The notes beneath the pieces are model-generated. The model did not search any database and had not been told where the DNA came from. It saw nothing but the letters and a program-made list of their open reading frames with translations. Below are positions 2,009-2,496 of a stretch of 64,000 nucleotides of DNA, piece after piece. Numbering within the stretch: position 1 is the first letter of the stretch; every line of letters begins with the position of its first letter. The position numbers were made by a program, and so were the translations under genes. This DNA comes from Candidatus Altiarchaeota archaeon (GTDB lineage Archaea; Altiarchaeota; Altiarchaeia; IMC4; SCGC-AAA252-I15), in the NCBI GenBank assembly GCA_043800705.1, contig JAZDMS010000023.1, forward strand, positions 32,001 through 96,000. The letters run 5' to 3'.

Positions 2009-2046
2009 TATATTTTAGTCGTCTGGAAAGATAAAAGCGGCCTAGT

Positions 2047-2135
2047 GTTTGCAGTCTTCGGTCCTCTGTCCCCGGTCTTCGGTCTTGTTATTCTTGGCGT
2101 GGCTGAGGACAGTAGACCAGAGACTGCAGACTTCA
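2047..2135. repeat. Heptamer-periodic imperfect inverted repeat (GTCYYCG-like units), copy 1
   Basis: gtttgca gtcttcg gtcctct gtccccg gtcttcg gtcttgt; right arm reverse-complements to gtctgca gtctctg gtctact gtcctca. Confidence 0.75.
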
Positions 2136-2137
2136 GT

Positions 2138-2200
2138 TCATCAGCACTCATAAGCCTCATCATCGCCTTTCGGCTCAGCCATCTTGAGTCATCACGTGAT
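2138..2200 (-). ncRNA. Box C/D guide sRNA, predicted tRNA-Met(CAU) Cm34 guide (sR-tMet/sR49-like)
   Basis: Minus strand: AUCAC-GUGAUGA(C)-CUCAAGAUGG-CUGA(D')-GCC GAAA GGC-G-AUGAUGA(C')-GGCUUAUGAGUG-CUGA(D)-UGAAC; all four boxes perfect, guides 10 and 12 nt, intergenic. Confidence 0.9.
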
Positions 2201-2496
2201 CTATTGTTTGACGAGGCGGTTATATGCATAAGGGCAAGACACCCTTCGGGTTTCTCGCCCTTATCAACCCTACTCTTCCGACATGCCATCGCGGATGGCA
2301 TCGTTCACTAATGTGTTTTTCTATTGTTTGACGAGGCGGTTATATGCATAGGGGCAGGCACCTTTCAGGTTCCCGCCCCTATCACCCCTACCCTCCGGTA
2401 TGGTGCCTTCGGCACCATGAAAAAATCCCGTAGACGTATGCATCGGCAGAAGGACAGGCGCCCTCGGGTTCATTGTTTGACGAGGCGGTTATATGC
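2201..2496. repeat. Three perfect copies of 25-bp ATTGTTTGACGAGGCGGTTATATGC (2203, 2323, 2472) separating two homologous double-hairpin units
   Basis: Direct reading; the third copy is the last codons (AYNRLVKQ) of ORF 2470..2871; units carry covarying stems. Confidence 0.9.

Follow-up and report, generated by a model that had tools for sequence, protein, structure and literature searches.

A conserved box C/D guide RNA gene of an Altiarchaeota archaeon and its predicted target, the wobble cytidine of unspliced elongator pre-tRNA-Met

On the minus strand of the window, the whole 64-kb stretch of DNA analysed here, the element at 2200-2138 is, as far as its sequence tells, a conserved archaeal box C/D guide RNA gene. 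We consider it very likely that its product acts in trans to guide 2′-O-methylation at the wobble cytidine (Cm34) on elongator pre-tRNA-Met that still carries its intron, and it is a further case of the Cm34 guide type that is in print for Pyrococcus and Haloferax. An earlier note on this DNA had called the sRNA unannotated, which is plausible because no Rfam family reached its gathering threshold anywhere in the window. In a permissive mode several box C/D families match the stretch, the best of them sR41 (RF01126; 30.5 bits, E = 3e-5, against a gathering score of 54), and sR-tMet (RF02163) reaches 17 bits (E = 3.5) against a gathering score of 50. The sRNA is an annotation that the usual Rfam thresholds overlook.

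Architecture and conservation of the gene

Read along the minus strand from 2200 to 2138, the element opens with a 5′ flank, ATCAC (2196-2200), whose TCA is complementary to the TGA that follows the D box (3′ flank UGA, 2138-2140), for a terminal stem of at most 3 bp; the ends are paired in the minimum-free-energy fold of the sRNA. The core, from C box through D box, spans 2195-2141. It runs from a C box, GUGAUGA (2189-2195), through a 10-nt D′ guide, CTCAAGATGG (RNA CUCAAGAUGG; 2179-2188), to a D′ box, CUGA (2175-2178), and a 12-nt spacer, GCCGAAAGGCGA (2163-2174), that forms a GCC-GAAA-GGC hairpin closing the C′/D′ motif. The C′ box, UGAUGA (2157-2162), is followed by a 12-nt D guide, GGCTTATGAGTG (RNA GGCUUAUGAGUG; 2145-2156), and the D box, CUGA (2141-2144). 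The earlier description of perfect C, D′, C′ and D boxes, a GAAA-loop hairpin between D′ and C′ and guides of 10 and 12 nt thus holds in each part, with all four boxes at consensus. A RUGAUGA near the 5′ end, a CUGA near the 3′ end, internal D′ and C′ boxes and guide spacers of these lengths are the marks of a C/D sRNA. A strict regular expression for the four-box architecture matches at three places in the 2.0-Mb genome and nowhere in five of five shuffled genomes, which is more than chance would give.

BLAST and pattern matching recovered the same architecture in relatives. A covariance model, R1, has matches at E ≤ 0.001 in 38 of the order's 49 genomes (Altiarchaeota-like), in most cases a single match each; its training rows match by construction, and 19 of the 38 matched genomes contributed no such row. 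The 11 genomes of the order in which R1 found no match are 67-93% complete. Throughout an alignment of 20 homologues the boxes are conserved, the D guide keeps the consensus xGCUUAUGAG(U/C)G and the D′ guide varies. The UGAUGA of the C box and the whole D box are invariant in all 20, the D′ box reads CUGA or CCGA, and the C′ box reads UGAUGA or UGACGA.

The hairpin between D′ and C′ differs among the homologues in length and sequence, with its pairing kept: 79.5% of cells are paired versus 56.9% in shuffles, all five pairs have changed on both sides, and none of 500 shuffles reaches the observed covariation score. When the partner strand is slid by 1-3 columns as a control, the paired share is 29.5-54.5%.

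The sRNA is probably transcribed from its own TATA-type promoter, to judge from the composition of the upstream DNA. A TATA-like box, ATATAA (2220-2225, minus strand), lies 24 nt upstream of the C box and is the presumed promoter. In the DNA upstream of 22 homologous sRNAs, the highest A+T fractions (0.77-0.95) lie between -30 and -27, with a drop to 0.32-0.36 at -24/-23, and a TATA-like pentamer starts between -36 and -26 in 16 of the 22. Among public sequencing runs, the single run listed for the stretch is a DNA run (0.06 share of words), and no RNA run is listed.

The DNA around the gene contains duplicated segments and hairpins. A 37-nt segment is present in three direct copies that are 78-100% identical (2200-2236, 2320-2356 and 2469-2505). 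The first ends at the 5′ flank of the sRNA and carries its TATA-like box, and the third overlaps the final codons and stop of a 133-amino-acid open reading frame (2473-2871) for which no Pfam match was found. We considered a decayed sRNA paralogue behind the two extra promoter-like copies and rejected it: run without filters, R1 picks out nothing in the window but the sRNA, and the next-best match scores 10.2 bits (E = 1.4). Between the repeat copies lie two minus-strand hairpins of the same shape (2237-2272 and 2357-2392; -28.1 and -32.0 kcal/mol, z = -4.5 and -3.6), whose sequence differences are compensating changes; insert, terminator and small RNA are all conceivable roles. The sRNA is immediately followed downstream by a long, near-perfect hairpin (2045-2133, minus strand; -36.6 kcal/mol, z = -4.1, a stability that none of 200 shuffles reaches) with a T-rich run after it; this hairpin could belong to the primary transcript or be one more hairpin insert. 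A further hairpin motif, GGTG-Y-TTCA-Y-CCCCAAA, stands downstream of the sRNA gene in one relative (L023), inside the tRNA-Met intron of six others (L032, L036, L037, L038, L043 and L046) and at the locus of an intron-bearing Ile2-like CAU tRNA gene (L055). In its strict form it is absent from the genome analysed here (G000). The element resembles a mobile hairpin insert for which tRNA introns are tolerated, or exploited, sites.

Pairing of the two guides

We compared the guides with a stable-RNA set of 35 sequences (7,367 nt) drawn from the assembly (43 contigs, 2.0 Mb, 87.55% complete). The set holds 33 tRNA genes, that is, 35 ARAGORN predictions minus 3 with implausible introns above 1 kb plus 1 gene from the Rfam tRNA model, together with the 16S rRNA and a partial 23S rRNA that stops with its contig at model position 2662 of 2987. 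ARAGORN found no tRNA in the 64-kb window, and the target of the D guide is on a different contig. Introns of 16-148 nt occur in 13 of the 32 retained ARAGORN genes. Several expected isoacceptors (including Ser-UGA, His, Trp and Glu) had no detected gene; gaps in the assembly or genes of unusual structure may be the cause.

The earlier note had proposed that the D guide is complementary to tRNA-Met(CAU), that the fifth base upstream of the D box lands on C34 and that the trailing AGCC begins an intron at 37/38, and it had suggested a search of the tRNA genes. That search bears out all three proposals. Only one tRNA gene, the elongator tRNA-Met(CAU) at G000:C18:126-282, contains the D guide's reverse complement, with a single mismatch at the position beside the D box. 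This gene has an 82-nt intron after position 37 and reads GACTCATA|AGCC at the exon-intron junction, AGCC being the first four intron bases. The duplex crosses the 37/38 junction, starting at position 31 and ending at intron base 4 with 11 contiguous Watson-Crick pairs, and the fifth D-guide base upstream of the D box faces C34. Eleven is also the longest Watson-Crick run of the D guide in the whole stable-RNA set, a length that only 2 of 1,000 shuffled D guides reach. With a pairing to a stable RNA above the roughly 9 bp expected of a guide, the target base at the fifth guide position, a duplex spanning the exon-intron junction and a guide gene outside the intron (C14 versus C18), the sRNA falls in the tRNA-Met Cm34 guide class; the D′ guide has no such pairing.

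Two further genes have a CAU anticodon. The first (C23) is of initiator type, with A1-U72 and three G-C pairs at the bottom of the anticodon stem, and offers the D guide 9 Watson-Crick pairs, 1 G-U pair and 2 mismatches. The second (C42) we read as tRNA-Ile2 because it shares 57 of 75 positions with tRNA-Ile(GAU) and has the same anticodon-stem sequence; it offers 9 Watson-Crick pairs with 3 mismatches. The genome also encodes TiaS. A second, intron-less elongator tRNA-Met gene could lie in the part missing from an assembly that is 87.55% complete.

The only two other canonical four-box C/D sRNAs found in the genome served as a positive control. Both match 23S rRNA over 11-12 bp in the same scan, which indicates that the scan is able to find true targets. 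These two genes (G000:C14:108722-108771 and G000:C25:43078-43126, both on the minus strand) lie outside the window, and the matches of their individual guides to 23S rRNA measure 10-12 bp. The C14 sRNA has adjacent matches for its two guides close to the 3′ end of the 23S rRNA as assembled; the C25 sRNA lies about 0.9 kb from the Nop5 gene.

An intron-bearing tRNA-Met gene was found across the order, with introns of about 60-190 nt as estimated from gene lengths. In all 16 genomes from which both genes were fetched, a duplex of 9-11 contiguous Watson-Crick pairs is kept from position 31 into the intron, and the guide gene lies outside the intron that it pairs with. Position 31 is paired in 15 of the 16, the exception being a C-A mismatch in G022; tRNAs with G31 (G024 and G028) face a guide C and those with A31 face a U. 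The outermost D-guide base is paired in 4 of the 16 genomes, with a G-U pair in 1 more.

For the D′ guide the earlier note had favoured Cm32 of tRNA-Ser(UGA), with tRNA-Leu(GAG) or rRNA as alternatives, and none of these gained support. Against the 33 tRNA genes, the 16S and the partial 23S rRNA, its best pairing is 6 Watson-Crick pairs (7 with G-U), which 993 of 1,000 shuffled D′ guides equal or exceed. No tRNA-Ser(UGA) gene was found in the 87.55%-complete assembly, tRNA-Leu(GAG) gave no match in the tested set, and neither the 16S nor the partial 23S rRNA offers a credible pairing. Genome-wide, its exact 10-mer occurs three times, in the sRNA gene and at C26:68666 and C31:18503, and neither of the latter is inside a tRNA or rRNA gene found in the genome. 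With G-U pairs allowed, full pairing is available at 159 places, none obviously tRNA-like.

The relatives give a similar picture. The D′ guides of 15 genomes show no consistent match to the cognate pre-tRNA-Met: 13 do no better than shuffled guides, and those of G010 and G022 beat the shuffles at places that differ from each other, in over-long tRNA stretches. The D′ guide sequence differs even inside a genus, which argues against a conserved target. According to passages of PMC7994747, one guide of a tRNA-directed sRNA targets the tRNA and the other commonly has no target. Given that statement and the lack of a match in our searches, we read the D′ guide as an orphan. It probably serves only as a spacer, although a target could lie in the missing part of the assembly, tRNA-Ser(UGA) included.

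Timing of methylation and competing readings

In archaeal C/D ribonucleoproteins, L7Ae binds the kink-turns formed by the C/D and C′/D′ motifs, and a Nop5 dimer and two fibrillarins join. The genome encodes all three proteins above the Pfam cut-offs (fibrillarin, PF01269, 260.1 bits; Nop5, PF01798, 219.1 bits; L7Ae, PF01248, 95.7 bits), as well as a tRNA splicing endonuclease. In the mechanism that we propose, an sRNA of about 60 nt would be transcribed from the minus strand and assemble with L7Ae, Nop5 and fibrillarin, the small covarying hairpin closing the C′/D′ kink-turn. The D guide would then pair with positions 31-37 of unspliced pre-tRNA-Met (the last of them A37) and with the 3-4 intron bases that come next, and fibrillarin would methylate the wobble C34 opposite the fifth guide position to give Cm34.

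The splice motif, derived by hand from the sequence, bears on the order of events. The central helix of the bulge-helix-bulge has 4 bp, between C32-A35 (CUCA) and a UGAG near the 3′ end of the intron, and is flanked by 3-nt bulges, UA^A and UU^A, that hold the splice sites; the intron bases GC pair with a GC immediately upstream of UGAG. The guide and the intron UGAG need the same bases, C32-A35, so guide binding excludes formation of the splice site, and this competition for the anticodon loop means that methylation should precede splicing. The long introns of relatives (L030-L046) also have a conserved 3′ part: their last 40-70 nt are conserved across the family (BLAST identity 79-90%, query 75-163) and hold a module GGCGC...CTTGGAGCTT...GCTGAGTT, of which the splice motif explains only the final GCUGAGUU.

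That the guide depends on the precursor is plausible from the pairing alone, yet the same ribonucleoprotein might act on spliced tRNA-Met (possibly also on tRNA-Ile2 or the initiator), with the intron pairing incidental. The spliced tRNA still offers 8 contiguous Watson-Crick pairs at positions 31-38, to which the intron adds only 2-3, and the outer helix of the splice motif is another explanation for the conserved intron start AGC. Eight pairs are, however, fewer than the 11-12 used by the genome's two rRNA-directed sRNAs, and the site in mature tRNA sits inside a closed anticodon stem-loop. Passages of PMC2584109 have part of the intron pairing with the sRNA that guides Cm34 of pre-tRNA-Met. 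Guide positions 2-3, which face the intron, would mismatch mature tRNA-Met, in which U39 faces a guide C, and their G and C are near-invariant in the 20 homologues. We judge action on the spliced tRNA improbable.

Still less probable, in our view, is an sRNA whose main role is to chaperone splicing or set its timing by shielding the anticodon loop from the intron UGAG, with methylation secondary or absent. The overlap of guide binding and central helix at C32-A35 is what such a role would use. A perfect D box and the exact fifth-base register fit catalysis instead, that register falls on the cytidine that passages of PMC6601510 give as Cm34 in archaeal elongator tRNA-Met, and fibrillarin is encoded, whereas nothing was found that points to a role in splicing. 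A chance array of short boxes, or a dead and unexpressed relic, is hardly credible: the repeat- and hairpin-rich surroundings and the lack of a public RNA run containing the stretch are outweighed by the absence of such arrangements from five shuffled genomes, mostly single-copy conservation in 38 of 49 genomes with invariant C and D boxes and D guide, covariation in the hairpin and a positioned A+T-rich box upstream of 16 of 22 homologues.

Guidance of Cm34 on the unspliced precursor, the reading that we prefer, raises the question of what the intron pairs contribute. Mature elongator tRNA-Met and the tRNA-Ile2-like CAU tRNA are identical at positions 30-40 (GACUCAUAAUC), so a guide directed against the mature loop could not distinguish the two. 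The C34 of tRNA-Ile2 must become agmatidine. Pairing with the intron gives 10-11 bp on tRNA-Met versus 8 on tRNA-Ile2. It is therefore conceivable, though we hold it only tentatively and on balance doubt it, that the intron base pairs act as a discriminator that restricts Cm34 to tRNA-Met and spares tRNA-Ile2.

Relation to known guides

Pyrococcus sR49 and Haloferax sR-tMet, which the earlier note cited as precedents, are both in print (PMC2584109; PMC4033218). Passages of PMC2584109 describe sR49 as a trans-acting C/D sRNA predicted to guide Cm34 of elongator pre-tRNA-Met and report 18 sRNA candidates for Cm34 of tRNA-Met. The sRNA described here resembles sR49 and Rfam sR41 (two names that we do not equate) in being a trans-acting double-box C/D sRNA whose other guide has no role on tRNA-Met, and it shares with the sR41 consensus a D guide core, UAUGAG, that faces C32-A37 of tRNA-Met(CAU). 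It differs in the intron-facing guide bases, GCUU here versus CCCU in the sR41 consensus, which fits the different intron start (AGC here), and in the hairpin between D′ and C′, which recurs in the order.

The four boxes with a UAUGAG D guide form a pattern found in at least 119 stretches of species-representative genomes. Among the 80 matches listed, 79 carry archaeal titles, and their lineages include Methanosarcinales, Methanomassiliicoccales, Thermoplasmata, Altiarchaeota, Nitrososphaerales, Bathyarchaeota, Thermoprotei and Thermococci. One listed match (L116) is titled Bacteroides; since contigs with the title Methanomassiliicoccaceae or Methanomethylophilaceae carry nearly the same sRNA, its contig is probably mis-binned. 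The intron-facing part of the guide is, on the evidence of the matches listed, lineage-specific: CCCU in most other lineages, GAUU in Nitrososphaerales and GCUU here.

Haloferax volcanii sR-tMet (RF02163; Joardar et al. 2011) guides Cm34 of intron-containing pre-tRNA-Met, and PMC4033218 and PMC6601510 present it as a trans guide of the elongator precursor that works with aFib, Nop5 and L7Ae, as we propose here. The two sRNAs have no detectable sequence-family membership in common at the Rfam score given above, and the one described here is a canonical four-box sRNA. The title of the 2011 report mentions 'unique features'. The archaeal pre-tRNA-Trp guide (Cm34 and Um39) likewise addresses C34 of an intron-containing pre-tRNA with intron bases taking part in the pairing, according to passages of PMC2584109 and PMC7994747, but it is encoded within the very intron of the tRNA that it targets and works with both guides, whereas the gene here is separate, on another contig, and uses one. 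Human SNORD97 and SCARNA97, given in passages of PMC6601510 as box C/D RNAs that direct 2′-O-methylation of C34 in elongator tRNA-Met(CAT), are likened to it by function only, being eukaryotic, encoded in introns and paired with their target without a tRNA intron. In the literature searched, neither the C/D guides of Altiarchaeota nor the tRNA introns of this group were the subject of a relevant paper.

The gene indicates that Altiarchaeota-like archaea keep an ancient link between the tRNA-Met intron and the guidance of Cm34. With apparently just three canonical C/D guides, this genome of an uncultivated organism offers a compact case for asking which 2′-O-methylations a mesophilic archaeon needs. 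If the intron pairs do serve as a discriminator, that role would give a selective reason for the retention of the tRNA-Met intron and its first bases across archaeal phyla.
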